From Candidatus Geocrenenecus sp. JGI 0000106-J15 (lineage in GTDB: Archaea; Thermoproteota; Nitrososphaeria_A; Caldarchaeales; Wolframiiraptoraceae), in the NCBI GenBank assembly GCA_000405685.1, contig ASPF01000012.1, forward strand, positions 14,326 through 78,325: DNA of 64,000 nt, in the 5' to 3' direction. The notes beneath the pieces are model-generated. The model was given only the letters and a program-made list of their open reading frames with translations. It had not been told where the DNA came from and ran no database searches. Of this stretch, positions 17,788-47,142 are shown piece after piece. The position numbers and the translations under genes were made by a program. Position 1 is the stretch's first letter; each line of letters opens with the position of its first letter.

Positions 17788-18258
17788 CTACTTGAGAGGT
17801 ACACTGATGCCAGGAGCAAATGGCTGCCCCTGGTTACATCGAACATCTCGCCCATATACTATAATATATGGGATTCGAGTTGCCCCAACCCCTGCTCTTC
17901 CATGTTTTACTTGTCTGTTCGTTAATGCGAATTCTCCCAGCCTATGACCTATCATTTCTGGTCTAATTTCTACTGGCACATATTCTTTACCATTATATAC
18001 ATGTATTGTCAGTCCAACCATTTCTGGAATTATTACCATGTCTCTTGCATGTGTTTTTAAAGGTTTCTTTGGTTTTTCCCCTAATTTAGTTAGTGTTTTA
18101 TATTCTTTGATTTTTTCAAGTAGTTTAAGTTGTGCATGTGTTAATCCTCTTTCTAAGCTTCTCCTAGCTCTACTTGGTAGCAGCTTGATTACCTGGTCCA
18201 TGCTCATCTGTTGTAGCTGTTCTAATGTATATCCTCTGTAAGTGAATTCTCTTGGCAT
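17788..18258 (-). CDS. rps19: 30S ribosomal protein uS19 (S19P).
   Basis: [19 protein letters not shown]...[44 protein letters not shown]...[10 protein letters not shown] is canonical uS19. The true start is the ATG at 18256-18258; the ORF-track N-terminal extension is spurious. Confidence 0.9.
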
Positions 18259-18280
18259 GCATAGAAGAATATTTAGGCAG

Positions 18281-18294
18281 GATATAAATTTGAC
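18281..18294 (-). promoter_or_regulatory. TATA-box-like element (TTTATATC on the minus strand) ~25 nt upstream of the rps19 start codon, implying a leaderless independent transcript.
   Basis: Plus-strand gatataaatttgac at 18281-18294. The spacing is typical for crenarchaeal leaderless mRNAs. Confidence 0.4.
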
Positions 18295-19015
18295 CTGTTT
18301 AGCCCCCAATTTAACGATTAGACTTTATTTCATAGTCTAAGGTTTAAGGTAAAATCTCCTATATGAGGATAAGGATGGTCGAGTTGACTAAACTCCATGT
18401 CTAACGTACATGAGTCATAAGTTAAACATCCTTGACAAAATCTTCTTGCCCATATATTTTATGATCTTCTAAGGTGAGTATGAATAATGAACTATTATTT
18501 TATTACTTCTTCTGCTAAGCATATTTCTTTTCTAGAACCGTTTAGCCAGTAAGTATTCTATAACTTCTCCATAACCTCCTAAGAAGCTCACTAAATAGGA
18601 AGTTATTATAGAAGTCTGACGTAAGCATTATAAACCCTTCATAGCCTGTTTTAATAGGAGCTTTCACTTTATTTAGAATCTTCTCACCGCGAATATTGTT
18701 GAGTGAAATTTGTATTAGAGGTGAAGGATTCCTCATACCTTTAAGGTTTTTCATACACTCTATGGTTCTATGGATCCTCCTAGATCATTTATTCAGAGAG
18801 GACATAATTTAACATTTTTATGAATTTCAGGCATTATCATAAGTTTTTGTGGCTAAGGATTCAAGAGTTAAGTAACTCATGAGGCATGACATCCTTTTAC
18901 ATGTATTTCTTAGTCAAATCTGAGTTTAATTAGACTGCTTTGCACAACTATATACATCAATGTTTTAAAAACAAATTAACTACATTCTTCAAGAGATTTT
19001 AAGTGACTTGGTATA

Positions 19016-20311
19016 ATGAGTAAGTCTATTCAAGTCTCTCTATCTATTGATGAGTTACCAAAATACTGGTATAACATTCTACCCGACTTACCTGGAAAGC
19101 TTCCAGAACCGTTAAATGAAGATGGAAGGTTGGAGAAATTAAAAGATATTTTAATTCCAGAATGCCTAAGACAGGAGTTTTCAAATGAGCGTTGGGTGAA
19201 GATCCCTGAAGAGATAAGAGAGTTGTATATCCGTGCTGGAAGACCTAGACCTCTACATAGAGCAGTAGGTTTAGAGAAGATGCTAAAGACACCTGCCCGT
19301 CTATATTACAAGAGGGAAGATCTTTCTCCAACTGGAAGCCATAAAGTGAATACTGCTATTGCACAAGTCTACTATGCTGCTGAAGGTGGATACAGCCGTG
19401 TAGTAACTGAGACAGGTGCAGGTCAATGGGGGACAGCAGTAGCATATGCAGCATCATTAATGGGTCTAAAATCTACAATCTACTGGGTGAGAGAAGCATA
19501 TGAGTGGAAGCCTGAGAGAAGAAGATTCATGAAGCTCTATGGTGCAGAAGTGCTTGCTTCACCATCAGATAGAACAGAGTTTGGAAGAAAGATGCTTAAA
19601 AACGACCCAGACCATAAAGGAACCCTTGGTATAGCTATCTCTGAAGCAGCTGAAGACGCTTTAAAACATCCTGATACAATATATCCTGTAGGAAGTGTAT
19701 TGAACTACGTACTTATGCATCAGACGGTCATAGGGTTAGAAGTTGTAAAACAGCTAGAGATCATTGATGAAGTTCCAGACATTATGATTGGATGCCTTGG
19801 AGGTGGCAGCAACTTCGGTGGGCTCACATTACCTATGATTGGAAAAGTTCTTAGAAAAGAAGTAGACAAGAAGATCAGGTTTTTAGCAGCCCAATCAGAA
19901 GCTGCACCTAATCTTGTTAAAGGAGTCTACCAATATGATTTTCCCGATACTGCACAGATTCTACCGAAGATCAAAGGATACACTTTAACTCATAGCTTCG
20001 TCATGCCTCCTATATGGGCTGAGGGTCTCAGATACCACATGGCCTCGCCGATAATAAGCTACCTAAAGAATATAGGGTTGGTTGAAGCAGTTGCCCACCC
20101 TAAAGATGAGAAAGCAGTATTCGAAGCAGCTAGAATGTTTATCCAAGCTGAAGGATTCCTACCTGCTCCAGAGTCATCGTATGCTATCAGAGCGATGATT
20201 GACGAAGCAGTTAAAGCAAAAGAAACAGGTGAAGAAAAAGTAATAATTGCAAATATAAGTGGACATGGATTCTTAGACCTTGAAGCATATAGCCGAGTAT
20301 TGAACATATAA
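19016..20311 (+). CDS. trpB2: Tryptophan synthase beta chain-like PLP enzyme (TrpB2 type).
   Basis: ...SPTGSHKVNTAIAQVYYAAEGG... contains the PLP-lysine motif. Size 431 aa, typical of stand-alone TrpB2. Confidence 0.75.
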   Translation: MSKSIQVSLSIDELPKYWYNILPDLPGKLPEPLNEDGRLEKLKDILIPECLRQEFSNERWVKIPEEIRELYIRAGRPRPLHRAVGLEKMLKTPARLYYKREDLSPTGSHKVNTAIAQVYYAAEGGYSRVVTETGAGQWGTAVAYAASLMGLKSTIYWVREAYEWKPERRRFMKLYGAEVLASPSDRTEFGRKMLKNDPDHKGTLGIAISEAAEDALKHPDTIYPVGSVLNYVLMHQTVIGLEVVKQLEIIDEVPDIMIGCLGGGSNFGGLTLPMIGKVLRKEVDKKIRFLAAQSEAAPNLVKGVYQYDFPDTAQILPKIKGYTLTHSFVMPPIWAEGLRYHMASPIISYLKNIGLVEAVAHPKDEKAVFEAARMFIQAEGFLPAPESSYAIRAMIDEAVKAKETGEEKVIIANISGHGFLDLEAYSRVLNI

Positions 20312-20370: not shown

Positions 20371-21090
20371 TTACCTCTTCCTTCGGCCCGTTCTCTTAGC
20401 TGATATCAATCCAACTTTTCTTCCAGGAGGTGCAGTTCTAGAAACTGTTTCAGGCCGTCCTAGTTTCTTTCTAGTTCCACCGAATGGATGGAACGCTGGA
20501 ACCATAGCTACACCACGTGTCCTTGGGTAAGGTCTATGCTTAGCCTTCATCCAGTGATGTTTCTTCCCAGCTTTGAGGAATGGTTTATCATGTAATCCTC
20601 CTCCAGCTACAGTTCCAACAACCGCTAAAGATTTAGAACTTAACTCAGCCATCTTCTTAGAAGGCATCAATAATATAGTCTTGTCGCCAACCTGAGACAT
20701 TACAGTAGCATATGTTCCAGGAGCTCTAACAAGCTTTCCCCCATCACCAGGCTTTAACTCGATCATCGAGACTATAGTTCCTTCTGGTGCTTTTCCTAAA
20801 GGAATTATATTTCCAGGCTTAATAGATGCTTCAGCACCCATCTCTATAATCTGCCCGACATGTAATCCTTCAACAGCTGCTACACTGAATGTTCTACCAT
20901 CTTCAAGAACGATCTCTGCGACTGGTGCACCTCTACCAGAGTCATGATGAAGCTCTTTCACATATCCTAAGACTAGGTTACTCGATCCAATAACCATGGA
21001 TGGATAACCTAGAGTAGACCTCCTCTTAAGAGAGGCCTTGAAAGTCGGCGACCCCCTACCAATCCTCTGAGCCCTAATCCTCCTACCCAT
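20371..21090 (-). CDS. rpl2: 50S ribosomal protein uL2 (L2P).
   Basis: MGRRIRAQRIGRGSPTFKA...HHDSGRGAPVAEI...GGGLHDKPFLKAGKKHHWMKAKHRPYPRTRGVAMVP..HPFGGT is canonical archaeal uL2. Confidence 0.9.
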   Translation of the reverse strand: MGRRIRAQRIGRGSPTFKASLKRRSTLGYPSMVIGSSNLVLGYVKELHHDSGRGAPVAEIVLEDGRTFSVAAVEGLHVGQIIEMGAEASIKPGNIIPLGKAPEGTIVSMIELKPGDGGKLVRAPGTYATVMSQVGDKTILLMPSKKMAELSSKSLAVVGTVAGGGLHDKPFLKAGKKHHWMKAKHRPYPRTRGVAMVPAFHPFGGTRKKLGRPETVSRTAPPGRKVGLISAKRTGRRKR

Positions 21091-21301
21091 TCACCAACCC
21101 ACTTTACAAGATTCAATATATCTTCTCAATATTAACATTAACGTAAAGCGATCAGCTGGAAAGTTAATATCTCTCCAGGTACTTTAAAAGAGTAGCTAAT
21201 ACATCGTAAAAAATCATCTACCGATAATTGAGCAGAGAAGTAGTAAGTTCTCTTAAAAATCTTTAAATAAACAGTTCTACAATACCTTCTTTAGAAAATA
21301 G

Positions 21302-22114
21302 ATGGCTGACAGGCTAAAACGAGAATTTATTGAGCTACTTGAGAAAGATAATGAATTCAGATATCTAGTTGCAGGATATCTAGGATACTTGGAGATACTA
21401 AAAAGGCTTGATATTCTACATGAAGATCAGAATAAAATCTGGCAAGAGATAAGATCGCTTAGAGAAGGGCAAGAAAAACTATGGGAAGGACAGAACAAGC
21501 TCTGGGAGAATAATACTCGTTTATGGGAAGAGGTAAAGAATCTAAGAATGAGCCAGGAGAAGCTCTGGGAAGAAGTTACGAGATTAAGAGAAGGGCAAGA
21601 AAAACTATGGGAAGGACAGAACAAGCTCTGGGAAGAGGTTAAGATTCTAAGGGAAGAGCAGAACAAGCTATTTGAAAATTATGAGAAGATGCGCAAATAC
21701 ATGTTGACGGGCTTTAGAGAGTTGAGGATGACTCTAGGAGTAACTTTTGAGGAGTACTCGGCTGGATTCCTCGAGATGATGCTTGTAGAGATGGGTTATT
21801 CTGAAGCTAGAGTTGAGAAGAAGTATCTTGTCCATGATGGAGAGGTTATCGAGATTAATCTATTCTGTGAGAAACCTCTTGTAGTTGGTGAAGTGACAAT
21901 GAGTATTAGAACGATTGATGAAATAAATAGAGAAATGGAGAAACTTCTTAAGCGTGTAGAGATAATTGAAAAGAAGTATGGAGAGAAACCGTTAATGTTG
22001 ATATTGTCTGTTGCGAGACCTGCTGCAGAGATCTCTGAATCGTTGAGGGTTTTAGCGGAGAAGAACGGAGTTAAGCTTATAATAGGGAGAGAGATTGAAG
22101 AACTCTTATCATAG
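21302..22114 (+). CDS. Coiled-coil repeat protein with a C-terminal PD-(D/E)xK-like (DUF3782-like) domain.
   Basis: N-terminal LREGQEKLWEGQNKLWEEVK heptad repeats are encoded by a 126-bp tandem DNA duplication. The C-terminal part reads ...LVHDGEVIEINLFCEKPLVVGEV.... Confidence 0.4.
   Translation: MADRLKREFIELLEKDNEFRYLVAGYLGYLEILKRLDILHEDQNKIWQEIRSLREGQEKLWEGQNKLWENNTRLWEEVKNLRMSQEKLWEEVTRLREGQEKLWEGQNKLWEEVKILREEQNKLFENYEKMRKYMLTGFRELRMTLGVTFEEYSAGFLEMMLVEMGYSEARVEKKYLVHDGEVIEINLFCEKPLVVGEVTMSIRTIDEINREMEKLLKRVEIIEKKYGEKPLMLILSVARPAAEISESLRVLAEKNGVKLIIGREIEELLS
21461..21640 (+). repeat. Intragenic tandem duplication, period 126 bp (42 aa), with a 47-bp identical core.
   Basis: agagaagggcaagaaaaactatgggaaggacagaacaagctctggga occurs at 21461-21507 and again at 21587-21633. 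Confidence 0.7.
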
Positions 22115-22201: not shown

Positions 22202-23044
22202 ATGTTTGCTCAGAAGAGGCTTGTAAAATTAGATGTTCTTATTCCATCCTCATTTTCTCATGAATCTCATCACCCTATTGAAAAGATTATAAGAATAGGA
22301 AGTATTGCAAGGTATCTAGCTGCATCCCGTGTAGACACCTTGATAATATATCCTGAAGAACTTGATTCTCCCCAGAAAGATAATGCAGAATATATTAGGC
22401 TTGTAATGGATTACTTGAATACAGCTCCCTATCTTAGAAGGAAGATCTACCCCTTAACCTCTAGATTAAAGTATGTTGGAGTACTGCCGCCTCTAAATAT
22501 TCCAACACATCCTGAGAGAGAAGATCTTGAGGTAGAACATTATAGAGAAGGATTAGTGATCTCATCTAACAAGAAATCCATTATATATGCTGGATTAAAG
22601 AAGATGCTTAGAACAGATAAGAAGTTCAAGAAGGGAGCAAGAGTGATAGTTAGAGTAATACCTTCTCAAGATAAGATGAGATTCAAATTATACTCTAAGA
22701 AAAAATCTAAGATATACTCAGGATTTAGGACCGCCGTAGTCTTACAGAGGCTTGACGAGATCATTAAAGACTATGATGTGAAAATAGCAACCTCAAGACT
22801 TGGTGTAGACATTAGAGATATTTGGATGGAATTAGAAGAAAAGATAAAAAAAGCAAAGAAAATATGTATAGTATTTGGTTCAGCTAAGCGAGGCCTTAAA
22901 GAAATAGCTGAATTACATAGATTTGATTATGAGAAGACGTTCAACTACATTATTAATACTTTTCCAAATCAAGCAGTAAGAACCATAAGAACTGAAGAAG
23001 CAATAGCATATACACTATCCATACTCAACTTAATCAAATTCTAG
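22202..23044 (+). CDS. SPOUT-superfamily RNA methyltransferase-like protein (COG2106/DUF171-like).
   Basis: The N-terminus LDVLIPSSF...IARYLAASRVDTLIIYPEE resembles the COG2106 family start (L.V.IPSS...IARA..IF.VDEI.IY). Confidence 0.4.
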   Translation: MFAQKRLVKLDVLIPSSFSHESHHPIEKIIRIGSIARYLAASRVDTLIIYPEELDSPQKDNAEYIRLVMDYLNTAPYLRRKIYPLTSRLKYVGVLPPLNIPTHPEREDLEVEHYREGLVISSNKKSIIYAGLKKMLRTDKKFKKGARVIVRVIPSQDKMRFKLYSKKKSKIYSGFRTAVVLQRLDEIIKDYDVKIATSRLGVDIRDIWMELEEKIKKAKKICIVFGSAKRGLKEIAELHRFDYEKTFNYIINTFPNQAVRTIRTEEAIAYTLSILNLIKF

Positions 23045-23053: not shown

Positions 23054-23485
23054 TTAGATATCTAATACGAATCTAACTACAAATTCTTGATTTTTCTTCA
23101 ATATCTCCATCCTCCAATATGTTGCAGCTTTAACATGGACACCTATCCTGTGAAGTTTAGGATTAAATTGTTCTCCACATAGTTTAGCTGAGAGAGTGTA
23201 CTGGTCACCTACTCTCTCGATTGACTTTACTTCGACAACTTTAGCTATAAAACCCTCAATATCAAACAATGCAATTAAGTATTGCAGCCACTCAACTAAT
23301 AAAGCTTCTAAGTCTTCTCCAACAACACTAATGTCTTTCTCAATCTTACATTCTACATTATCTGTAGAAGATATAGTATTGTAGAGTGCAAGAGCAGCTT
23401 GAGAGAAAGCTTCATGCAACGATTCTCCGTAAGCTTCTACGTAAACATCACCGATATGTTCAAGAAACCTAAAGCCTCCAACCAT
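23054..23485 (-). CDS. Archease.
   Basis: FRFLEHIGDVYVEAYGESLHEAF..AA.A......VGEDLEALLVEWLQYLIALFDIEGF...HVKAATYW fits the archease family pattern. Size 143 aa. Confidence 0.75.
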   Translation of the reverse strand: MVGGFRFLEHIGDVYVEAYGESLHEAFSQAALALYNTISSTDNVECKIEKDISVVGEDLEALLVEWLQYLIALFDIEGFIAKVVEVKSIERVGDQYTLSAKLCGEQFNPKLHRIGVHVKAATYWRMEILKKNQEFVVRFVLDI

Positions 23486-23590: not shown

Positions 23591-24691
23591 TTAACGAGTT
23601 TCTTCCCATCCTTCTTCCCATGATTCTCCTCTGCCCCATCCTCCCCATTCTTCCTCTTCTACTCTGATTACGCTACGTCTTTTCCTGATAATAATTACTA
23701 CAATAGCTATAGCAACTATGACTACTGCTATTATTATGATTATATTCCTTAAAGTTTCTTGACCAAGAAATGGCCAAGGCCACATCTGAGTCTGAGTTCC
23801 ACTCGTTATAGTGACGTTCTCTATCTTAGCTGGATATATCTCTACTTTTACGGTGTAGCCTCCTCCACCTCCAGCACCACCCATATTCTCAACAGAAAGA
23901 TAGAATGTATTTACACCAGTCTCCCAATCTCCACGAACTCTAAGAGTTACAGGTTCTCCTTTACTCTCAGATTTATTATGTCTTAGAGAAAACCCGTCGG
24001 GCGTGAGGAGAGATGCCCAGATCATTAGATATGGTTCAGGTTTAACCTCAACGTATATCTCATCTTTAGGCTGGAGATTCATACTTAGCTTATAATAATC
24101 TGAGTAATCATTTCCATATTCTTTCTCAGCTAAGTATCCTTTAAAGGTAGTTACGGCATCTCTAGAGATAGAAGGAGCTGGAATAGCATCTTTCATATTA
24201 GCTCCAGCATCTCTTCCAGAGTCTGCATCAAAGAAATACTCAATAGATATCTCTAGAGTATAGTTTAGGCTTCCACTACTTTTTCCAATCCGGATATATA
24301 ATGTATTTTCATCAGGATTGGTTGGATCGTATGCTAATAGATAACTTAACTCAACCTTCTTTATTACGTTTTTTCCAACTACTTGGTCGATACCAATAAG
24401 CCTAGCTCTACTTGGAGAGTAGAGTGAAACCGTAGTCAATCCAGGCTCAATACCTTTTAAGCTTCCCGAGATGCTGATCTGGATACCGCTCTTTAAATTT
24501 GTAAACATATAGTAATGATTATCTTCAAAAATCTTGGTTAGAGAACCGCTAATCGATGCTGAGCCTGTAGAAAGATCTACAGGTTTAGCAGTGTCGAAAT
24601 CAAGCCCAGGCTCTACTTCTTGAGAGTAGATGAGCGGAGTACATATTAGCATGATAGATAACAATAAAACAGTTATGCTTGCCTTCTCCAT
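23591..24691 (-). CDS. Secreted/surface protein with an N-terminal signal peptide, a C-terminal TM anchor and a Trp/Gly/Glu-rich cytoplasmic tail.
   Basis: Signal peptide MEKASITVLLLSIMLICTPLIYS|QEV. C-terminal IIIIAVVIVAIAIVVIII followed by RKRRSVIRVEEEEWGGWGRGESWEEGWEE. Confidence 0.5.
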   Translation of the reverse strand: MEKASITVLLLSIMLICTPLIYSQEVEPGLDFDTAKPVDLSTGSASISGSLTKIFEDNHYYMFTNLKSGIQISISGSLKGIEPGLTTVSLYSPSRARLIGIDQVVGKNVIKKVELSYLLAYDPTNPDENTLYIRIGKSSGSLNYTLEISIEYFFDADSGRDAGANMKDAIPAPSISRDAVTTFKGYLAEKEYGNDYSDYYKLSMNLQPKDEIYVEVKPEPYLMIWASLLTPDGFSLRHNKSESKGEPVTLRVRGDWETGVNTFYLSVENMGGAGGGGGYTVKVEIYPAKIENVTITSGTQTQMWPWPFLGQETLRNIIIIIAVVIVAIAIVVIIIRKRRSVIRVEEEEWGGWGRGESWEEGWEETR

Positions 24692-25159: not shown

Positions 25160-25847
25160 ATGAGGATGGTGTTAAAGATTCGAAAAAAGGCGTGATAATT
25201 CGTCCTAAGAAACGAGGGATGCTATAGGTCTTAAGGAGGGAGATGATGTAGCCGTGGAAGTTACTGTGTATAGCTTCGTTTTAAGAGCATCGAAACCTAA
25301 CTCTGTTGACGTACCGGATATTGTAGAAGAGCTTCTAGGTGAAGAATACAAGTTTGAAGAATATAGATATAGGAGGCTATTTCAGAGTGAAGAAGATAGT
25401 ACTTGATACTAGCGTGCTCATCGAGTATATCCTATTCCAGAGTTCTCATCGTCTAAAAGTTGAATCATTATTTAATAAAGTGGTCCCGTAGGGACCTAGA
25501 ATTATTTGTTAATGCGGTCACCCTTAGTGAGACGTTATACGTGTCCTCTAAAATATACCAAGCGGCAGGATTGGAAGCTCCTAATATAGAAGCTCTATAT
25601 TTCGTAGAATTGATTAAAGGGTAGAATGGAGATCGTGAATATCAGTGAAGATGTAGCGATGAGAGCTGGAGAACTGAAGAAGAAACTACGTATAGCGTTG
25701 CTAGACTGCTATATAATATCTGTAGCTGAAGCTATAAATGCGAGACCATTATTTAAGAAGCAGGAAAGTGGGATGACGCCGATTCTAAACAGCCTAGAAA
25801 AACTAGGCGTACTATTCTTGGATAAGATGAGCATAGATGAACTTTGA
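25160..25847 (+). pseudogene. vapBC: Shattered vapBC module: an AbrB/SpoVT-type antitoxin (~25160-25406) and a PIN toxin (~25387-25847), each broken across three reading frames.
   Basis: Antitoxin pieces: MRMVLKIRKKA*, VIIRPKKRGML*, and GLKEGDDVAVEV...EEDST*. Toxin pieces: VKKIVLDTSVLIEYILFQSSHRL...VVP*, DLELFVNAVTLSETLYVSSKIYQAAGLEAPNIEALYFVELIKG*, and MEIVNISEDV...IALLDCYIISVAEAINARPLF... (ORF 25626..25847). Frame changes sit at A6, G3 and C3 homopolymer runs. Confidence 0.55.
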
Positions 25848-27479: not shown

Positions 27480-27488
27480 CTATATCGC

Positions 27489-28466: not shown

Positions 28467-28477
28467 GATTTACGATG

Positions 28478-29347: not shown

Positions 29348-29421
29348 CTCAAGAAATCTAGAAACTAGAATCTTAATAACATTTCCTCAAAAATATCATA
29401 GCCACTAACAATAATATTTAC

Positions 29422-31216: not shown

Positions 31217-31311
31217 GTCTCTCTAGGAGATGGAGCTTCATAGATTAAAACTAAACTAAGTAGCTCATAGATAGGATAAGGATAGCAACATAGGTCAACC
31301 TTTTTCAATAA

Positions 31312-34652: not shown

Positions 34653-34691
34653 CTGAACATTAAAGAACAGACTCATTTTCGATTTGATTAC

Positions 34692-35813: not shown

Positions 35814-35951
35814 GATTGTTACCCCGAAGGGTATGGAGCGTGTAAAATTTAAAGCTTGAGTTAATTTTTAGTTATTTATCTCATGAATCGCTAAACAGAA
35901 TTTTAAAATACTTGTTGACCTGTTTCTTTACGTCGAAATCTTTAGCTCTCT

Positions 35952-37078: not shown

Positions 37079-37123
37079 AGTAACTTTCTATACTAGAACT
37101 CATATAAAAGACTAGCTTGCTAA

Positions 37124-38578: not shown

Positions 38579-38725
38579 CAGTACAGTCTACCTCTTAGGA
38601 TTCAAATATTTAATACTTCTCCAATACAATAAACATATCTGATACAACAAACATCCATATAAAACGAGTAAGAAGAAAAAACGTAAGATTAACATATATC
38701 TAAATCTTCTCTAATTGTTAGAAAT

Positions 38726-39622
38726 ATGAGAATAGCCACCGCTGTTTCACGCTATCCATTCTATAACTTTAGATACCTGAAATTACTAAACCTAGTAGAA
38801 CCTGATGTCGTTTGGTTATTCGATACCGCTATCCCTTTAACACCATTAATAATAAAACCACCAATAATTCTAGATATTGAGGATCCGAATCTTACTCCGT
38901 TAACTAAGTTTTCTTTAATACGAGACCTTTATCTGATGAGAAACAATCGTGTAAAGAAGATAGTCACTACAACAAAAATTCTAAAAGATAAACTCATGAA
39001 ACTTTATGATATGCCTGAAGATAAGATTGAAGTAATCCCTTACGGTGTGAATCTCGAATTATTCAAACCCACAGACTTACCCGATGAAAACACTATTCTT
39101 TACTATGGTACTTTAGCACCTCATCGTTCGAGATTCCTTGTTAAAGTTGTTGAAGAAGTGTTGAAACGTAGAAGAGATGTAAAGTTTATAATCATAGGCG
39201 ATGTGCCAAGATGGCTGCAAGAATATCTGACCCGCAAAAACTATATAGAAAATATAGTTATGCCTGGATATATTGAGCATGATAAACTTCCTGAATGGAT
39301 TAAAAAAGCTAGAGTCTGTATCTTTACACAAGATATCTCGCTTGGAGGAAGACTATCATTTAAACTATTAGAGTACATGGCCTCTGGAAGACCCACAGTA
39401 GCAACTGATGTTGATGAATCATGGCCTATCAAAGAGTCAGGTGCTGGAATAATTTCACCACTTAATCCTGAGATCTTTGCAGATAATGTAATTAAATTAT
39501 TGGAGGATAAAGTCTTGGCTGTAATGCTTGCTGAGAAAGGTGTAAAATATACTAGACAGTATAATTGGAGCGATATGGTGGCTAGATATGTTAAGCTTAT
39601 AAAAGAAATGACAGAAAACTAA
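38726..39622 (+). CDS. GT4-family glycosyltransferase (short form).
   Basis: ...LEYMASGRPTVATDVDESWPIKESGAGI... signature region. Confidence 0.65.
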   Translation: MRIATAVSRYPFYNFRYLKLLNLVEPDVVWLFDTAIPLTPLIIKPPIILDIEDPNLTPLTKFSLIRDLYLMRNNRVKKIVTTTKILKDKLMKLYDMPEDKIEVIPYGVNLELFKPTDLPDENTILYYGTLAPHRSRFLVKVVEEVLKRRRDVKFIIIGDVPRWLQEYLTRKNYIENIVMPGYIEHDKLPEWIKKARVCIFTQDISLGGRLSFKLLEYMASGRPTVATDVDESWPIKESGAGIISPLNPEIFADNVIKLLEDKVLAVMLAEKGVKYTRQYNWSDMVARYVKLIKEMTEN

Positions 39623-39623
39623 T

Positions 39624-40697
39624 CTAGCTTATCTCCAATTGAAAATTTCTTTCTATTATTTCTTGGAGTTGTTTAGCTCTATGCATTAATGTATGAGTTT
39701 GTATTATCCTGTTATAGCCAGCTTCAGCAACTCTGTTTCTCGCCACATCATCCAACAAATATGTTTCAACATTATCTAAGAATTCTTTCTCATCATCACA
39801 AGCTATAACTTCTTTTCCTACCTCGAAGAGCTCATTGATGCCCGCCACTCTATCGGAGATAAGTAGCTGTCCAGACCCTGGAACCTCGAAGGTTCGTAAA
39901 TTCAGTGCTGTATGACATTTCCTAGAATTATCTCTATGTATATTGATGCAGACCTTTGCCATGTTATGAAACTTATTTAATAACTGTATTGCACACTAGG
40001 AATTATCTTTGCATCCTTAACGTTAAGATTGGCAGTCCAGCCCGATCCTATAATAACGACAGATCTGCGAAAACGTTTTATGAGAGGATATAGATAAGTC
40101 CTATAACCTACTTCTCTATCTCTGAGGTATCTACCAGTAAAAAGTATGTCTATCATCTTCTTACTTTTCCTGATAGGATAGAATAAATTAGTGTCGCAGG
40201 CTAAGGGAAAAAGATAGCATCTACTCCATGCTTTGTCCAGAGCTCACATCCACCTTTTGAATAACACAACAGAAGGCATCTACTGTTGCTCAGATATTGT
40301 GAATACTCTGCGTAAGGAATATTGGGTGAATCAATATCCCACAGAATCATGGGGAAAAGATGTTTTGCCAACTCAACTACTCCTGGATAACTTAATGCGG
40401 TAACACTTAACAAAAGACAATCAAAATTCCTTAGAACGTACTTGACAAAAGAATATCTTTCGGAGAATAATCTTGCATGCCTCAAGCCTCTTCGAAAAGA
40501 TAAGCTATAAACGCTAGGAAAGATAACATTATACATATCAGGAGAATATAACTTGATCCTTTAAGTCCTAAGTATAATATCATTGTAGCCGATAGGATGG
40601 ACCATTATGCTATCATCCAGAAAGGATAGGCTCTGAGCTAAAGACTTTAAAATATAGCTTCCTTTCTCAAAATCGAGTGAGGGGCCAAGAACAGCCA
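39624..40697 (-). pseudogene. CgeB-like (Glyco_trans_1_2) glycosyltransferase broken into at least four pieces by frameshifts/stops.
   Basis: Pieces in order: MKLAVLGPSLDFEKGSYILK... (start ~40697), MYNVIFPS...GVDAIFFP (40201..40536), ...DTNLFYPIRK...VVIIGSGWTANLNVKDAKII.. (start-less), and MAKVCINIHRDNSRKCHTALNLRTFEVPGSGQLLISD...ACDDEKEFLDNVETYLLD...HTLMHRAKQL (39624..39962). Together they match the CgeB-family GT profile. Confidence 0.5.
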
Positions 40698-40749
40698 GCT
40701 TCATTTTAGCTTGATGGAAACTAATATATTGAAGTGACTAATATAGCTT

Positions 40750-41770
40750 CGCTCTTAATCAGGGAGTTTGTTGGTAGGCGTAGGGTTGATCTCCCACCTT
40801 ATCTAACCTTATTCTATGCTGGCAGAGCTTCTGAACCTATTCGTATGTGAGGCTTCAGCTGCTAGGTTTCTGAGGGGGGTTCGATGGGCTGGAGGCATCC
40901 GCTGCCCTTACTGTAGTTCTGAAGCTATCATTAGATGGGCTTGGTACAGGCGTGTGTATCAACGGTATCGATGTAAGGCATGTAGACGTACATTCAATGA
41001 TAAGACTGGAACAATCTCTGCCTACAGCCGTATACCCTTAAATGAATGGCTATTCCTCGCATATCTTCTAGGATGCCTCCACATATCTATCTTGGAGGCT
41101 TCAAGAAAGCTTGAGCGTAGCTATGGAGCCTTCTACCGCTCAGCTAGGAAGATAATATACGCTATCCATAGATGTAGGAGGAGGTTATGGGGTTCTAGGA
41201 AGCTTCCAGGAGATGTAGAGATGGATGAAGTATATGTTAAAGCAGGCTTAAAAGGAAGAGGTAACTATTGGAGGATACTATCTCTTGGAAGGAAGCCTAG
41301 ATGTAGGGGTTTGAAGGCTAGGAGAGGAAGAGGCTCCTGGAAGAAGGATATGCCTCCAATAATAATCCTTGTTGAACGTAGAGGGGTGGAACGCTACATT
41401 CCATCTACCGATGTAGAGAAAAGAACCATTGAAAAGATTGTCTCAAGACATGTAGAGCCTGGCTCCAGAATCTACACAGACAGCTTCACATCCTATACTA
41501 TCCTCCAAACCCTAGGCTTCAAACATGAAAGAGTAAACCACTCAATAAGAGAATCTGCTAGAGGAAACATACATACCAACAACTGTGAGAATAGAGCATC
41601 AATCCTGAAGCCATGGCTAGCCATACACAGAGGAGTATCCAAGGATAACCTTGACGTATACTTAAGCTTCTTCCATCTTCAGAGAACCACAAGCAAACTC
41701 CCAAACCTCCAAAAGATCAAGCTCATAATAAAAACTTAAACCCCACCAACAAACTCCATGATTAAGAGCG
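40750..41770 (+). mobile_element. Intact IS1595-family insertion sequence (1021 bp) with 26-bp terminal inverted repeats (25/26 identical) and an 8-bp target-site duplication TATAGCTT.
   Basis: Left IR cgctcttaatcagggagtttgttggt at 40750-40775. Right IR (reverse complement) cgctcttaatcatggagtttgttggt at 41745-41770. The TSD tatagctt lies at 40742-40749 and 41771-41778. Confidence 0.8.
40816..41739 (+). CDS. tnp: IS1595-family DDE transposase with an N-terminal Zn-ribbon.
   Basis: CPYCSS...YRCKACRRTFNDKTGT is the transposase zinc-ribbon. DEVYV, IYTDSFTSY and VNHSIRE...HTNNCEN match IS1595 DDE-region motifs. Confidence 0.75.
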   Translation: MLAELLNLFVCEASAARFLRGVRWAGGIRCPYCSSEAIIRWAWYRRVYQRYRCKACRRTFNDKTGTISAYSRIPLNEWLFLAYLLGCLHISILEASRKLERSYGAFYRSARKIIYAIHRCRRRLWGSRKLPGDVEMDEVYVKAGLKGRGNYWRILSLGRKPRCRGLKARRGRGSWKKDMPPIIILVERRGVERYIPSTDVEKRTIEKIVSRHVEPGSRIYTDSFTSYTILQTLGFKHERVNHSIRESARGNIHTNNCENRASILKPWLAIHRGVSKDNLDVYLSFFHLQRTTSKLPNLQKIKLIIKT

Positions 41771-42191
41771 TATAGCTTTAGAGAGAATTGGAAGCTAAAA
41801 TTTGGCAGATAAGCGCTAGATACACTTATCTAGATTATACAGATCTAAAAGTAAAGATAAGTAAACTGCTAGAATATGATCTTGAAAAATTTGGATATGA
41901 AAATAGAGTAGAAGCACTTAACATCGCATCCAAAAGTTATAAAGAACTAAAAGAAAAAACTCCTATCACTTAGAGACAAATTTGAAAAACGATAAAGTAT
42001 GATAGTGTCTAAAGGCTTAAAGCATATGTCTTCCCCAGCCTTATCTGTAAATTAAAAATCTCTATAAATAAACGAAACCTTAAATAAAACTCGACTGGAC
42101 CGCCCGCCAAGAGATTAAGGCGATCGAGAGAACTGTCAGACTACTAACAGAGATTAATATATCAGAATCTGAAATATTTTTTGGAGAAGAT

Positions 42192-42908
42192 ATGTTGAGT
42201 GAAGCTTATTCCAAGCTCTTACTAAGATTCGGGCTTAGGAAGTTTAGGTCATCTGACGCCTTGTACATTGTAGGAGCAGAAAGACTCTACTTGATTCTAC
42301 ACAGGCTATGTAGGGCTGGTTACTTAGTAAGAATTTCCAGGGGAGTTTTTAGAGTCTCTCATCCTACTGTGCTTGTCTTGGAGCGGGCTGGCTATAGATG
42401 GAGAGATAAGATAATCCAGAAAGATTATCTGGAATTTCTAGAATCACTTGTTGTAAAGGTCCTCGAAGGATTTTGGGATAAGCTCATCTCGCTGGTGATC
42501 TTCGGGTCCGTGGCGGCCGGCCAGGCGAGGGCTGAGAGTGACGTGGACCTACTGATCATAGCCGAGGACCTGCCGGAGAGATACTCGGATAGGTTGAGGC
42601 TCTGGAGGGAAATTGTGGCTGGTCTCGAATCCGAGAGGCTGAGGCTCTGGAGGGAGAAAAAGCTTTACCCGTTGATAGATCCTATACTTTTAACCCCAAG
42701 CGAGGCTGAAAGAATTCAGCCATTCTACCTCGACCTTTTGGAGTACGCTGTAATCGTCTATGATAGAGATGGCTTCATGCACCGGGTTCTCGAAGGATTG
42801 AGAGCTAAGCTGAAGATCCTAGGAGCGATTAAAGTGGAGCTTCCAGATAAGTCATGGTATTGGGTTATTAAGCCTGGCGCTGGTTTTGGAGAGGCGATCA
42901 TGGTTTGA
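42192..42908 (+). CDS. Nucleotidyltransferase (MNT/Pol-beta-like) with an N-terminal extension; partner of the downstream HEPN gene. Compositionally GC-rich.
   Basis: VIFGSVAAGQARAESDVDLLIIAEDL carries the GS...DxD motif. Contains an internal 45-bp duplication (RLRLWRE twice). Confidence 0.65.
   Translation: MLSEAYSKLLLRFGLRKFRSSDALYIVGAERLYLILHRLCRAGYLVRISRGVFRVSHPTVLVLERAGYRWRDKIIQKDYLEFLESLVVKVLEGFWDKLISLVIFGSVAAGQARAESDVDLLIIAEDLPERYSDRLRLWREIVAGLESERLRLWREKKLYPLIDPILLTPSEAERIQPFYLDLLEYAVIVYDRDGFMHRVLEGLRAKLKILGAIKVELPDKSWYWVIKPGAGFGEAIMV
42591..42655 (+). repeat. Intragenic 45-bp direct duplication.
   Basis: aggttgaggctctggaggga at 42591-42610 and aggctgaggctctggaggga at 42636-42655. 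Confidence 0.6.
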
Positions 42909-43330
42909 GGATGGATGACTTGGCCCGTGATTATCTTAGAAGGGCTGAGGCCAGGCTCGCATCCGCTCGATATGCTCTCAACCAAGGCTACTATCCAGAA
43001 GTTGTTAGATATTCTCAGGAGTGCGTAGAACTCTCTTTAAAGGCGTGCTTAAGACTTGTCGGAGTCGAGTATCCAAAGGTTCACGATGTCGGCGATGTCC
43101 TGAGAGCAGAGTCCATGAGATTTCCAAGCTGGTTTAGAGAGGAGGTTGATAGGCTTGCAGAGATCTCTAGGAATCTCGCAGAGAAGCGTGCTCCAAGCAT
43201 GTACGGAGTAGAGATTGCTGGAAAATCCCCTGATGATCTCTTCAATAAAGATGATGCCATGAAAGCCTTAGAAAGAGCGGAGCTTGTTCAAAGGCTGGCG
43301 AAAAAACTTCTAGAGCAAGCTAAGTTCTAA
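42905..43330 (+). CDS. HEPN-domain protein.
   Basis: Size 141 aa, helical. Follows the MNT gene with a 4-nt overlap. HEPN-like Arg/His positions (…EKRAPSMYG…). Confidence 0.55.
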   Translation: MRMDDLARDYLRRAEARLASARYALNQGYYPEVVRYSQECVELSLKACLRLVGVEYPKVHDVGDVLRAESMRFPSWFREEVDRLAEISRNLAEKRAPSMYGVEIAGKSPDDLFNKDDAMKALERAELVQRLAKKLLEQAKF

Positions 43331-43843
43331 GTATATTAATGGTCTCTAGGCTTAAGTACCAAGTATCTCCTACGTCCTTAGTTCAGCATAGTCAAGACGT
43401 AGTTAAGATGGGTTATTCAATCTCAAAAAGCATTTTTTTCTAGAGAGATATCATGTTTTCGAACTTGCTGAATCGAGGAAGAATGTATTGAAGATGCTTA
43501 TATAAGATGAAGAGTTATAAGTAAATCTTTCCAGAGTAGAGTCTAAGAATAGTGATAAGTTATATGCTTTCAGAGGATGTAGGTCAAGAATCTGTCAAAG
43601 CGATGTTGAATATTTTAACAAAAGATCGGAGAAGGTTAAAGAACGTTTTAAGAGATGGCGAAGTCTATTCTCAAATGTTTGGAAGCCGTATGAACCATAC
43701 TACTTAGAAGAAGCCTATAAGAAGAAGATAAAGCTGGGTGCATCATGTCTAAGGTAGAGATCATACTTTATAGCTGCTAGAAGAACATGTTATAGGAAGA
43801 ATGTGAATTTTAGATCTTTCTAGAGTTCTTAGTTGCTTATGAT

Positions 43844-44305
43844 CTATGTTTTGTTCTTTTTCTTCATGTCTAAGGTTATCTTTGCAATCTTTGATATATT
43901 CCATTCTCCATGCCTGTTTACATAGATGTAACTATGCTCCTTAAGCTTCTCCAACATCTTTAGAATCTTCTCTTCTATATCTAGTCTATCGTAGACTACT
44001 CCATAGCCTAGTGCGAGACCTGAGAGAAAACCTCCGACCTCCATATTCTTATCCAACCCTCTAATATCTAGAACATGAACGTCAAGTGTAATAAAGTAAT
44101 TGAATAGTCTATTCAAATATTCTATTATCTTCTCTTCTAAGCTAATCTTTTCTTTAAGATCTTCTAAGTAGTTAACTACTACTAGGATGTCTAGGTCTCT
44201 CCCATGACCCATGTAGATACTACTACCGAATAGAATGATAGACATTAATCTATCTCCTAGAATCTCATTCAATGCTTGATTAATCTTCAATTCTAACTCC
44301 TTCAT
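43844..44305 (-). CDS. Minimal nucleotidyltransferase (MNT).
   Basis: LMSIILFGSSIYMGHGRDLDILVVV carries the GS...DxD motif. The start codon is uncertain; the ORF track extends it to 44398. Confidence 0.6.
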   Translation of the reverse strand: MKELELKINQALNEILGDRLMSIILFGSSIYMGHGRDLDILVVVNYLEDLKEKISLEEKIIEYLNRLFNYFITLDVHVLDIRGLDKNMEVGGFLSGLALGYGVVYDRLDIEEKILKMLEKLKEHSYIYVNRHGEWNISKIAKITLDMKKKNKT

Positions 44306-44720
44306 CTTCAAGAAACCTCCTAGCTTCCACAAATGCTTCTCCTGCAAGCTTAACTGCTCTTTCAGCTTTTTCTCTAGTAACGTATTGGGCTGGCTCAACT
44401 ACTTTTTCATCGATTATGAATGGGTACCTGCTTCTAGTATAATATTCATGAAGCTTCTCTAATGCTTCAACAATCTTAGTAAACTCTTCTCTCCATCTAT
44501 CTTGGAAAGCTTTCAAGAAGTAGCCTGTCAATCTAGGACCACAATTATATACGTATTCCGCCTTGGCTTCAAGCATTGCTTTGACAGCTTTCTCTACACA
44601 TTGCTGTGAGAAGAAGATAGATGCAGGATAATCATAAAGTTTAAGCATATCTTCTGCTCTCTTAAGGTCTCTCCAAGCTTCTCTAAGATAGCTTCTAGCA
44701 AACTCTCTGAATAAGCTCAT
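44280..44720 (-). CDS. HEPN-domain protein.
   Basis: ...HEYYTRSRYPFIIDEKVV... HEPN motif region. Upstream of and overlapping the MNT gene. Confidence 0.6.
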   Translation of the reverse strand: MSLFREFARSYLREAWRDLKRAEDMLKLYDYPASIFFSQQCVEKAVKAMLEAKAEYVYNCGPRLTGYFLKAFQDRWREEFTKIVEALEKLHEYYTRSRYPFIIDEKVVEPAQYVTREKAERAVKLAGEAFVEARRFLEDEGVRIED

Positions 44721-45068
44721 CCAGTTCTACATCTCTATACATAGTTTTATAGTTTACTCCTAAACTGCAACAACCACTTTGAATACTCTCTAAATTTGAA
44801 GACACCTAAAACATAGTGTGACTCCGAGAGCAGATAGATGTTTTGCAAACAGCTGAAAAACTAGATGTATATCTTCTATTAGTTTGTTTATGATCTCTCT
44901 TAGATCTATGAGTTCCACCTACCTGAACTTTTTATCTTCTTCAACATACCCTTATAAAATTCATTCCTCGAACTCAAGATCTACCTGTATTACAAATAGT
45001 ATGATAGCAGTCCATGCTATATCTTAGAAATAGGGTGTGAATGATGCGTAATAGCTGTTAGGCGAATC

Positions 45069-45329
45069 CTAGAATATTCCTAGTTTTATTGCTAGTTCTG
45101 AAGCTGGCGTATCAGATGAGAGTTTTACGTATGCTTTCTTCTCTCCTAGAGGTGTTATCAACGTATTTATCTTGATGACTTTAACACCGTAGAGTTCTTC
45201 TACCGCTCTCTTAATATCTTTCTTTGTTGCTTTACTGTCTACTATAAATGTTATCTTATTTTCTTTCTCTATAAGTGAGACAGCATCCTGGGTGATTACA
45301 ATCCTCTTGATTACTTCTGAAGACTTCAC
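45069..45329 (-). CDS. rpl23: 50S ribosomal protein uL23 (L23P); GTG start overlapping the rpl4 stop (GTGA).
   Basis: [57 protein letters not shown] is canonical uL23. Confidence 0.9.
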
Positions 45330-46159
45330 TTTAATCCCCCTAGTAATACTTCATCGATCTTCTCAAAAGCATTAACACTGTAGATTGTTAATCTTCCAGG
45401 CTTAGCCCCTGGAGCTAGATGGAGTACACTTAAATCTTTCAACTTAACAACATCTACTCCAGGGATGTTCTCTGAAGCCTCCGATATTCCCATGTCTTCT
45501 AATACGACAATTAATGGTCCGATTTTCCTCTTGTATCTTCTACCACGCTTCTTACCCTTACCTGCCCTGATCTTTTTCTCTCTACATCTCTGAAGTTCTT
45601 CTTTAAGACCAATCTTCTCAAGGAATTCTCTAAGCTCTCTAGTTCTAGCTATTGATTCAATCTTCTCATTGACAACTATTGGTAGACTTATGTTTTCTGG
45701 AATTCTATGTCCACGTTTTGTTACTGCATCTGGAACGCCTGTATATGCTACCGCAGTTATCAACGCTATCCTCTTTTCTTTCTTATTCAATTCTTTGTAT
45801 ATCTTCTTCTCAGGTGTAGGTGGATGGGTTGGGCGACCACCAACAGCTGATGGAACCATCCCACCTGATTGTGCTTTACCTGTTCCTGATGCTCTTATCC
45901 TAGATATCCTCGCCATACCGTATCCAGCCCCCCAAGAATCTACAGAATATTTATGTCCAGATCCTTTAAATGCTCCTTTAGGTTGTAGTTTATGTGTTTG
46001 GAGATGTATGAATGCTCTCCATACAAGGTCTTCTCTTAACGGTGCATAGAAGACTCTTGGAAGAGCTACCTCGCTAATCTTAGAACCTTCTAGATCTATA
46101 ACTGGTATCTTCTTCTCTATACCTTCAGATGCTTTAAGCAACTCTACCAATATGCTCAT
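45326..46159 (-). CDS. rpl4: 50S ribosomal protein uL4 (L4P).
   Basis: ...[49 protein letters not shown]... is canonical archaeal uL4. ATGA overlap with rpl3. Confidence 0.9.
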
Positions 46160-47142
46160 CTTGGAACACCAACCATTATTATCTGTGGTGCTTCATGAAG
46201 CCTAGGAGGTCTAGCAGGCTTTCTCAATACTACAGCTCTCTTAGGAACTCCTGGAACTGTTCCCTCCAGTATTACTGCCTCTGTTCTAACTACTCCGAAG
46301 TGGGGATATCCACCTTTAGGTGTATATTCTAAACCACTCTCACTATATGTGAGTATTCTCTTATTGTATTCTGTTCTACGATGATATCCCATCTGTCCTG
46401 CTCTTGGAACAGTATATGTTACATAGGCTGGGCTTCTACCACCTATTGCTCCAACCTCTCTCCTAGTCTTCCTCTTCTTCCTAGGCTGTATCTTCACTTT
46501 ATGTCTACCTACTACTCCTTCGAATCCTTTACCTCTAGATACAGCTATAACATCTATGAACTCTCCATTATTGAAGACTTCAGAGATTTTTACTTCCTTA
46601 CCAAGTCTATTAATAGCATATTCTAGTGCTTTATCTAGTGGTCCACCTACTTTTATCTCGATGAGGTCTACCTTCTTCTTAGATAATCCAGCCAGCTTAG
46701 GTCTTGCAAGAGCTATTACTCTAATCTCCTTCAAATTATCGAGGCTACTCTTTAATTTCTCTAATTTTTCTTTCTCATTAGGTCTCCAAGTAGGAATACT
46801 TTTCTTGATCTCTTCAGGTAGATTACTAGCCCAGACTCTTGTATACTCTTTTAATGCACCATTCTCCTCAGTATATCCAACTATTCCTGCGATGATTATT
46901 GGAGGTGTAGCTATTACTGTTCCTACTTTTGCTACTTCAAGACCTTGAGTGGGAGAATTCGGTATATTATCTATATAGTAGACCGTTGTATGTCCAGCTT
47001 TATATCCTATGAATCCGAGTAGCTTAGGTTCACCATCGTATGGAGGCCAATACTTTACACGGGGAACTATACGGCTAGCTCTACCTCTAGGAAGATATGC
47101 TAGCGAGCTCCTCCTAGGAGCAGACTGTTTTCTATGACCCAT
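46156..47142 (-). CDS. rpl3: 50S ribosomal protein uL3 (L3P).
   Basis: MGHRKQSAPRRSSLAYLPRGRASRIVPRVKYWP...FEGVVGRHKVKIQPRKKRKTRREVGAIGGRSPAYVTYTVPRAGQMGYHRRTE is canonical uL3. Confidence 0.9.
   Translation of the reverse strand: MGHRKQSAPRRSSLAYLPRGRASRIVPRVKYWPPYDGEPKLLGFIGYKAGHTTVYYIDNIPNSPTQGLEVAKVGTVIATPPIIIAGIVGYTEENGALKEYTRVWASNLPEEIKKSIPTWRPNEKEKLEKLKSSLDNLKEIRVIALARPKLAGLSKKKVDLIEIKVGGPLDKALEYAINRLGKEVKISEVFNNGEFIDVIAVSRGKGFEGVVGRHKVKIQPRKKRKTRREVGAIGGRSPAYVTYTVPRAGQMGYHRRTEYNKRILTYSESGLEYTPKGGYPHFGVVRTEAVILEGTVPGVPKRAVVLRKPARPPRLHEAPQIIMVGVPR

Follow-up and report, generated by a model that had tools for sequence, protein, structure and literature searches.

Ribosomal protein genes of the locus

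The 64,000-nucleotide (nt) stretch of contig ASPF01000012.1 analyzed here (the window) carries five ribosomal protein genes, rpl3, rpl4, rpl23, rpl2 and rps19, encoding uL3, uL4, uL23, uL2 and uS19 (below also L3, L4, L23, L2 and S19). Two properties of these genes are considered, namely their dispersal along the window and two intron-like insertions in the last codons of rps19. Gene identities have been assigned via Pfam and NCBIfam searches (Table 1); loci of other genomes are denoted by L numbers, and proteins, by P numbers. The minus strand carries all five genes, in the canonical relative order, with a 4-nt start/stop overlap both in L3/L4 and in L4/L23, but these members of an S10-like operon are not contiguous: unrelated genes separate L23 from L2 (a gap of 23,978 nt with about 25 genes) and L2 from S19 (2,112 nt with trpB2 on the opposite strand). 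The coordinates, strand, overlaps and distances of the three pieces rpl3-rpl4-rpl23, rpl2 and rps19, as given in the initial annotation, are all reproduced, and so is the opposite-strand trpB2 (TIGR01415) between rpl2 and rps19.

L22, S3, L29 and S17 have no tblastn match in the whole 64 kb with outgroup queries, in agreement with the reported absence of rpl22 and rps3 after rps19, and Pfam scans of essentially all open reading frames (ORFs) of at least 90 amino acids (aa) did not yield a further ribosomal protein ORF in the window. The integrase remnant noted earlier downstream of rps19 is a frameshifted tyrosine-recombinase pseudogene, which matches Phage_integrase above the cut-off and retains the recombinase motifs YDTGARLGE and PYIFRHS in frames -1 and -2 of the six-frame translation (approximately 16835–17540).

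The closest L2 and S19 sequences belong to Candidatus Geocrenenecus (arthurdayi, huangii, dongiae), Wolframiiraptor, Benthortus and "Aigarchaeota" metagenome-assembled genomes (MAGs). Judged by these relatives, the window organism is an archaeon of the hot-spring order Caldarchaeales (Aigarchaeota) close to Ca. Geocrenenecus, in the family Wolframiiraptoraceae described in PMC9246946, and not a classical crenarchaeote, as had been supposed. An exact-protein match for the window L2 was not found in the protein collection.

Each piece is preceded by an AT-rich box, located at a fixed distance and conserved across species. The rpl3 box TTTTTATT is at about 47178–47185, approximately 40 nt before the ATG, and the rpl2 box TTAATATT is at about 21128–21135, approximately 41 nt before the ATG, which has GGTGA ahead of it. 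The TATA box initially assigned to rps19 is found as well; it reads TTTATAT, CTTATAT or CTTAAAT at a constant distance in 11 Wolframiiraptoraceae loci and is also kept in L010, where S19 starts only 80 nt past L2. Its spacing at the rps19 start codon implies a leaderless mRNA. These boxes and, as further indirect evidence, the opposite-strand genes between the pieces lead us to infer that L3-L4-L23, L2 and S19 are each transcribed autonomously.

Table 1. Features of the ribosomal protein locus and of the DNA around it (positions in the window)
Feature	Position	Strand	Evidence or remarks
rpl3 (uL3), first gene of piece 1	46156-47142	-	Pfam Ribosomal_L3 1.1e-75
rpl4 (uL4), middle of piece 1	45326-46159	-	Pfam Ribosomal_L4 1.4e-33
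rpl23 (uL23), end of piece 1	45069-45329	-	Pfam Ribosomal_L23 1e-15
HEPN/nucleotidyltransferase toxin-antitoxin pair, directly after rpl23	43844-44720	-	Pfam HEPN 1e-18; same pair in L032-L035
Second nucleotidyltransferase/HEPN pair	42192-43330	+	Pfam NTP_transf_2, HEPN; also in L032-L034
IS1595-family element	40750-41819	+	transposase 40816-41739, Pfam DDE_Tnp_IS1595 1.3e-20 and N-terminal zinc ribbon
Glycan biosynthesis island	26148-40536		Pfam
Decayed PIN (vapC-like) gene over three frames	25339-25847	+	PIN-like motifs IVLDTSVLIEY ... LLDCYIISVAEA, by eye
orf366	23591-24691	-	no Pfam/NCBIfam match
Archease (RtcB RNA ligase cofactor)	23054-23485	-	Pfam Archease 2.4e-38
SPOUT-type putative RNA methyltransferase	22202-23044	+	Pfam Methyltrn_RNA_3 1.8e-47; position kept in relatives
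rpl2 (uL2), piece 2	20371-21090	-	NCBIfam NF007180 292.7 bits; Pfam Ribosomal_L2_C
trpB2 (TrpB-like PLP enzyme), rpl2-rps19 interval	19016-20311	+	TIGR01415 588.5 bits, cut-off 519
TATA-like box of rps19, TTTATAT	18282-18288	-	centered about -27 from ATG
rps19 ORF (uS19), piece 3	17788-18258	-	PF00203 1.5e-31
rps19 predicted exon 1 (codons 1-128 + 1 nt)	17874-18258	-	Pfam Ribosomal_S19; end ...ACU CGA A
rps19 predicted intron 1, 29 nt	17845-17873	-	BHB CUCG[AA^U]-hairpin-CGAG[AU^G]
rps19 predicted micro-exon 2, 10 nt, GUUCGAUGUA	17835-17844	-	..GU UCG AUG UA of Ser-Ser-Met-Tyr once spliced
rps19 predicted intron 2, 31 nt	17804-17834	-	BHB GAUG[UA^A]-hairpin-CAUC[AG^U]
rps19 predicted exon 3, U GUA CCU CUC AAG UAG	17788-17803	-	completes invariant ...MYVPLK*
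Frameshifted tyrosine-recombinase (integrase) pseudogene	16553-17540	-	Phage_integrase 28.8 bits (cut-off 27.1), Phage_int_SAM_4
tRNA-Ser(UGA), splice-geometry control	9190-9300	-	Rfam tRNA 39.7 bits; 22-nt BHB intron 9239-9260

Candidate introns in rps19

Canonical S19 orthologues end with GATRSSMYVPLK at 136 aa, and the window rps19 is longer than they are by 60 nucleotides, located after the Arg codon. These constitute two insertions, each of which can form a bulge-helix-bulge (BHB) element, that is, a 4-bp helix between two 3-nt bulges, closed by an 8–10-bp hairpin (h′), the hairpin arms being CCCAUAUAUU/AGUAUAUGGG in the first insertion and CCAGGGGCAG/CUGCUCCUGG in the second one. If cuts are placed two nucleotides into each bulge, in-silico splicing produces ACU CGA AGU UCG AUG UAU GUA CCU CUC AAG UAG, read as T R S S M Y V P L K stop, and a 136-aa uS19 matching the archaeal uS19 model TIGR01025 end to end. 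The predicted spliced RNA joins ACUCGAA, GUUCGAUGUA and UGUACCUC, and the predicted tail peptide over the first splice junction is AGVGATRSSMYVPLK. The last nine codons of rps19 are probably interrupted by two BHB mini-introns, for which we predict splicing, and the 156-aa ORF would be a read-through of two intron-like insertions and not the mature coding sequence. In vivo, cleavage by the tRNA splicing endonuclease is expected two nucleotides inside each 3-nt bulge; ligation of the exons by RtcB with archease would then produce the 136-aa uS19 with the tail RSSMYVPLK.

The intron-containing tRNA-Ser(UGA) of the same window, found by Rfam, whereas ARAGORN detected no tRNA, serves as a control for this geometry. 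Its splice sites are fixed by the 7-nt anticodon loop, and in its motif CUUG[AG^A]...UAAG[UA^A] the positions of the cuts in the bulges are equal to those in rps19. Minimum free energy (MFE) folding recovers the central helix, the 5′ bulge and the hairpin of intron 1, and the MFE fold of intron 2 has z from –2.9 to –4.8. Another register for intron 2, AUGU[AAC]...GCAU[CAG], was rejected, as it creates AUG UAA, truncating the tail, and the MFE fold favors the other register. Even with up to three mismatches allowed, the window contains a single copy of the 16-nt rps19 terminus, and an att-type duplication is not observed. Counts of motifs are uninformative: a permissive BHB scanner yields about as many matches in the window as in shuffled sequence (approximately 240); therefore we rely on comparative data.

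Nearly all of the 120 best S19 homologues have the C-terminus ...GVGATRSSMYVPLK at 131–137 aa, the tail RSSMYVPLK is invariant in 114 of them, and aberrant tails are observed only in the closest relatives of the window. Intron 1 occurs, always at the same position, in seven variants of the sequence (the window; L040/41; L001/44/45; L011-16/47; L046; G. dongiae L007/L021-28; L020), and intron 2, in five of them (the window, L040/41, L001/44/45, L011-16/47, L046) and none elsewhere. The intron lengths are 29 or 31 nt across the variants. As these are not multiples of three, gene callers gave frameshifted tails (P0001, P0003, P0005), and read-through of the predicted introns explains the aberrant public annotations of S19 in these MAGs (144–188 aa). 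The reading frame is broken in L001, L007, L011, L020 and L046, with the codons of the downstream exon intact, and in-silico splicing leads to GATRSSMYVPLK followed by a stop codon in all seven variants.

The sequences of the intron hairpins are almost wholly different, and their pairing is always kept. For seven helix positions in seven variants, 49 of 49 cells contain standard pairs, with two to four pair types per position; the covariation was counted on a manual structural register, since MAFFT could not align the non-homologous intron interiors. Moreover, the Arg-Ser-Ser codons, which form the exon half of the BHB, are CGA-AGU-UCN in all intron-bearing alleles, whereas in intronless ones seven synonymous combinations are found. 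Twelve intronless sequence variants, including that of G. arthurdayi with 95% protein identity, are empty at exactly the intron point. The predicted spliced protein of G. dongiae, a sister species, is identical to P0121, the product of the genomic intronless allele (contigs L118-L121), and therefore the insertion is precise and polymorphic within the species. The genomic allele P0123 likewise encodes exactly the predicted spliced protein, and this second pair, P0122/P0123, differs by one residue.

Gene order in related genomes

According to a survey of ribosomal protein gene clusters, the uS19-uL22-uS3... core is conserved in all considered non-Asgard archaea except one thaumarchaeote, N. aquarius AQ6f (PMC10833476). 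In the Caldarchaeales loci examined by tblastn, L22, S3, L29 and S17 are never found near S19. With the same queries, L22 is located at most 3 kb from S19 in 33 out of 62 outgroup loci, which are largely Bathyarchaeia, going by the L22 search; eight outgroup loci have L3-L4-L23-L2-S19-L22-S3 in order, and six of these eight continue through L29-S17. The string is not universal in the outgroup either, because in a large, probably Bathyarchaeia, group among the outgroup metagenome loci (L056-L117) the order is L4-L23-S19-L22-S3, with L2 displaced. Wherever both genes are on the contig, all relatives with S19 identity of at least 76% have 2.8 kb or more between L23 and L2, compared to 6–76 nt in more distant loci.

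The composition of the loci varies within the order. In G. dongiae, represented by eight independent NCBI MAG assemblies out of 24 allele-carrying contigs, we observe Lrp-HEAT-L3-L4-L23-[orf359-archease-methyltransferase]-L2-[80-aa ORF]-S19. Locus L010 has L3-L4-L23-[two other genes, ORFs of 424 and 459 aa]-L2-S19, followed by an ArsR gene and then by the orthologous glycan island, and a Wolframiiraptor MAG has L3-L4-L23-[ADH, ABC transporter x3]-L2-[MFS]-S19. The relative arrangement of L2 and S19 is altered in L008 and L009, and in L003 the L23-L4-L3 block is inverted and located approximately 6 kb from L2. S19 is solitary among unrelated genes in Ca. Caldiarchaeum subterraneum and Calditenuis, while L031 has tight L23-L2-S19 with archaellum genes upstream, L3-L4 and downstream L22 being absent.

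Much of the window arrangement is also found in other species. The gene of trpB2 occupies the same position in L001, L002, L005, L006, L011, L020, L038 and L040, the order L2, reversed trpB2, S19 is observed in L001, L002, L005, L006, L011, L038, L040, L044 and L045, and trpB2 between L2 and S19, as well as sugar-nucleotide genes abutting orf366 upstream of L2, are common to several species. Archease and the SPOUT methyltransferase adjoin rpl2 throughout Geocrenenecus; orthologues of orf366 share its position in L002-L007 and L021-L028 and are located between rpl23 or glycan genes and archease in all Geocrenenecus loci. In L004 (G. huangii) and L006 the order is (NTP transferase)-epimerase-UDP-glucose dehydrogenase-orf366-archease-methyltransferase-L2-trpB2, as in the window from 29347 down to 19016, and glycan genes are similarly placed in at least three further species or strains. 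The window L23 protein is identical on six independent contigs (L032-L037), and in those long enough downstream (L032-L035) the neighbors match the window: L3-L4-L23 is followed by HEPN/nucleotidyltransferase pairs and then by glycan genes, with 99% nucleotide identity.

These gene orders indicate that the break between S19 and L22 is shared at the level of the order, and that between L23 and L2, at the level of the family. Accordingly to the same comparison, the broken ribosomal string appears as an inherited, lineage-wide organization, neither a recent insertional accident nor a misassembly. An ancestrally dissolved cluster, together with rps19 split by two BHB introns, is the joint explanation of the locus that we consider highly probable. 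The S10-like cluster would have been resolved into independent units L3-L4-L23, L2 and S19, with L22-S3 and the following genes residing elsewhere in the genome, and the uncoupled junctions would have become permissive sites. As such junctions tolerated insertions, they would carry different cargo in different genera, such as orf366-archease-SPOUT methyltransferase in Geocrenenecus and trpB2 between L2 and S19 in a Geocrenenecus subclade, and the hypervariable glycan island with modules of HEPN and minimal nucleotidyltransferase (MNT) genes would have been added between L23 and orf366 in the window subclade. We infer this succession of events from the shared arrangements.

Alternative explanations

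The rps19 insertions could also remain in the message, yielding a longer or frameshifted C-terminus; the gene could be a decaying pseudogene with a copy elsewhere, or its tail could have been remodeled by a mobile element integrated at the rps19 3′ end. Several observations are compatible with that and weigh against splicing. The window insertions total 60 nt without a stop codon, and since they keep the frame, the unspliced mRNA is still translatable, giving a read-through protein of 156 aa that ends with SVPLK. Mobile remnants are located just downstream of rps19 (integrase in the window, TnpB in L011, LAGLIDADG in L007 and L039), and in G. dongiae the intron allele is distinguished from the intronless one by a replaced 2.3-kb tract, which begins 14 nt ahead of the intron site. 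Hairpins resembling the BHB often arise by chance, with 29 hairpins having a 3-nt bulge in the window vs. approximately 21 in shuffles. The outer helix h is weak, with two A-U pairs in intron 1 and one base pair, a mismatch and two base pairs in intron 2; the MFE fold in the 101-nt context puts a 1x1 internal loop in place of the 3′ bulge of intron 1; the central helix in L001, L011 and L046 consists of three base pairs and a G.A mismatch; and the protein collection yielded no exact match to the spliced protein predicted for the window type or for the L011 type. Still, the frameshifted tails of L001, L007, L011, L020 and L046 are unrelated, yet the SSMYVPLK codons stay intact and in register, a pattern that neither a pseudogene nor a free-running tail would be expected to show, and RSSMYVPLK is invariant in the overwhelming part of the homologues, as described above. 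Moreover, the helix positions covary, the synonymous sites of the BHB exon half are frozen only in intron-bearing alleles, and there is no second rps19 3′ end in the window. Retention of the insertions is therefore considered unlikely.

For the dispersed gene order, the initial annotation offered two readings, a lineage-specific disruption by insertions or an assembly chimera. A chimera, in which unrelated contigs were joined and the ribosomal genes are only seemingly dispersed, might be suspected from the probable origin of the sequence as a MAG, from the GC content, changing from 0.34 to 0.46 along the window, and from the IS element and repeated HEPN/MNT pairs, which might mislead assemblers. 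However, every junction is reproduced in assemblies obtained independently, with other samples and assemblers: L032 matches the window collinearly, with 99% identity over 41820–49362, and then continues into glycan genes, L004 and L006 connect glycan genes to L2 and trpB2, and at least nine loci connect L2-trpB2-S19. As all junctions are supported by other assemblies, we exclude the chimera, its residual probability being negligible. A recent strain- or species-specific insertion that tore apart an intact L3-L4-L23-L2-S19 string agrees with the abundance of mobile and accessory DNA (IS1595 with empty sites, toxin-antitoxin pairs, the decayed PIN gene, the integrase pseudogene) and with the low GC content of the glycan island, and G. 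dongiae lacks this island between L23 and orf366, so the island was gained or moved within the genus. But the L23|L2 and S19|L22 breaks are older than the genus, the promoter boxes of each piece are conserved across genera, and trpB2 is found between L2 and S19 in loci with S19 identity as low as 76%. The placement of glycan genes is not recent either, because sugar-nucleotide genes, with proteins 65–80% identical to those of the window, abut orf366 in L004/L006, and in L032-L034 the island is located after L23, as it is in the window. Comparison of synteny had been proposed beforehand, with a dispersed order in close relatives as the outcome speaking against insertional disruption, and such an order is largely what we find. 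Thus disruption by insertions holds in a weak sense only, for the recent IS1595 copy, while the breaks themselves are shared at the family and order level, and we consider a recent insertion as the cause of the breaks very unlikely. The ancestral dissolution is in turn weakened by three circumstances: the polarity of rearrangements within the family is deduced from a small number of MAG contigs, with no tree; the evidence for separate transcription consists of conserved AT-rich boxes; and the Geocrenenecus L22-S3 genes were not located with a Bathyarchaeia L22 query, the best 120 matches being all Bathyarchaeia-like.

Comparison with known systems

As of 2020, cbf5 of Crenarchaeota was stated to contain the only BHB intron in a coding region (PMC7714728), and we found no other in the literature searched (PMC2738675, PMC7714728, PMC6379350). 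The cbf5 intron (Watanabe 2002; Yoshinari 2006; Yokobori 2009, PMC2738675) is likewise short and located within the coding sequence, is mis-annotated as a frameshift or truncation, is patchy among close relatives, and occurs in a lineage with a hetero-oligomeric endonuclease. In Ca. C. subterraneum, from the same order as the window organism, the splicing endonuclease is reported to be heterotetrameric, and many tRNA introns occupy non-canonical positions (PMC3082918). The rps19 case differs in the gene (uS19) and lineage (Caldarchaeales), in that splicing is predicted from sequence, and in having two introns 10 nt apart, leaving a micro-exon, within the last nine codons. Canonical tRNA BHB introns share the hBHBh′ geometry and cut position with those of rps19, the size being 29/31 nt in rps19 vs. 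22 nt, but in rps19 the host RNA is an mRNA, and the outer helix is provided by the coding sequence and is weak. One further BHB intron in an mRNA was described in the haloarchaeal 5′ untranslated region of Haloferax volcanii HVO_1309 (PMC7714728); it is likewise an mRNA substrate of the tRNA splicing endonuclease, but resides in the untranslated leader and, unlike the rps19 introns, leaves codons uninterrupted.

For more than 20 years cbf5 has been the sole known archaeal protein-coding BHB host. If rps19 is a second one, mRNA splicing by the tRNA machinery would not be a one-gene curiosity, the candidate being an essential ribosomal protein gene outside the classical Crenarchaeota, with two introns and a 10-nt micro-exon. 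The presence and absence of the introns within a species would provide a natural system for studying intron gain and loss.

The gene-order result is incremental and descriptive, and of modest interest. Compared to the archaeal S10/spc super-cluster (PMC10833476), the window has the same orthologues, strand and relative order, and L3/L4/L23 are still coupled by 4-nt overlaps; it differs in the gaps of 24 kb and 2.1 kb with unrelated genes, some on the opposite strand, and in uS19 being cut off from the uL22-uS3 core. Fragmented clusters of Thaumarchaeota, relatives of the Caldarchaeales, show a similar lineage-wide loss of integrity and separate units (N. aquarius AQ6f, PMC10833476), but their break points differ from those in the Caldarchaeales. 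No description of the L23|L2, L2|S19 and S19|L22 breaks of the Caldarchaeales was found in the literature searched. Fragmented ribosomal protein clusters also occur in Nanoarchaeum equitans and Thermoproteales. The textbook "universal" gene string appears to be dissolved across a whole archaeal order, its junctions acting as landing pads for variable cargo, which matters for operon evolution and for binning and quality checks of MAGs based on S10/spc synteny.

Possible mobility of the rps19 introns

The intron-bearing and intronless alleles of G. dongiae share 99% identity until 14 nt ahead of the intron site; from there on, 213 nt of the intronless allele (L118:6385-6597) are replaced by 2,300 nt (L021:10385-12685), and then homology resumes. 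The replaced tract includes the rps19 terminus with the intron and an opposite-strand gene for a 433-aa LAGLIDADG protein, and the intronless alleles lack both. A truncated LAGLIDADG remnant is present at the corresponding place in the intronless L039, while a TnpB remnant is located 3′ of rps19 in L011, and the integrase pseudogene, in the window, which has no homologue of the LAGLIDADG protein. The region immediately 3′ of rps19 is thus a hotspot for mobile genes, and the intron may be carried along in an endonuclease cassette.

In collaborative homing, an endonuclease-less intron is combined with a free-standing homing endonuclease gene, as in cyanophage psbA/F-CphI. The G. dongiae intron allele likewise travels with a neighboring LAGLIDADG gene, in one 2.3-kb tract. 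It differs in that LAGLIDADG cleavage of intronless rps19 is only hypothetical, and in that intronless L039 carries a LAGLIDADG remnant, while the window has the integrase pseudogene instead. It is conceivable, although we give it little credence, that the rps19 mini-introns are mobile among Geocrenenecus populations in a cassette with the free-standing LAGLIDADG gene, by collaborative homing of a BHB intron. The BHB intron would interrupt the endonuclease target in the host allele, and the lineage of the window would have lost the endonuclease gene, leaving two orphan introns beside decayed genes of mobile elements. Such mobility, if true, would be a concrete mechanism for tRNA-type introns colonizing protein-coding genes.

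Intervening and flanking DNA

The 24 kb between L23 and L2 were initially described as accessory DNA, and this description fits the glycan genes, the IS element, the toxin-antitoxin pairs and the decayed PIN gene, whereas orf366, archease and the SPOUT methyltransferase are conserved neighbors of rpl2. The archease/SPOUT methyltransferase pair is also located directly upstream of L4 in a Bathyarchaeia locus (L070:305-1851), and this suggests an old association of the pair with the ribosomal cluster.

The glycan island encodes UDP-glucose dehydrogenase, epimerase, NTP transferase, GT1/GT4 glycosyltransferases, some of them truncated, and a flippase-like protein. Its region 37134–40749 is 88–90% identical to L032, compared to 99% in the flanks, and looks like a hypervariable, recombining surface-glycan locus. 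As L032 has longer versions (355 and 352 aa) of the glycosyltransferases that are truncated in the window, their decay is probably strain-specific. L032 and L034 align to the window up to 40749 and resume at 41820, that is, they retain an empty site of the IS1595 copy, which is strain-specific, as both lack 40750–41819; this copy is the only element demonstrated to be specific for the window.

Five pairs of HEPN (or HepT) and MNT genes are found in the 64 kb (8027–8778, 10744–11476, 42192–43330, 43844–44720 and 47326–48169), and several of them flank pieces of the ribosomal gene string, likewise in related loci. Next to rpl2, a 270-aa coiled-coil protein (21302–22114, plus strand) has internal LREGQEKLWEGQNKLWE repeats and a weak match to DUF7801, and two or three paralogous copies of it are present in L002, L003 and L011. 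A 2,167-aa ORF (37–6540, plus strand), in which only C-terminal CarboxypepD_reg and Ig-like domains are recognizable, is a candidate giant surface protein of the S-layer type. One more ORF, for a small retropepsin-like aspartyl protease (13543–13908, minus strand; gag-asp_proteas 1e-8), is conserved in L011.

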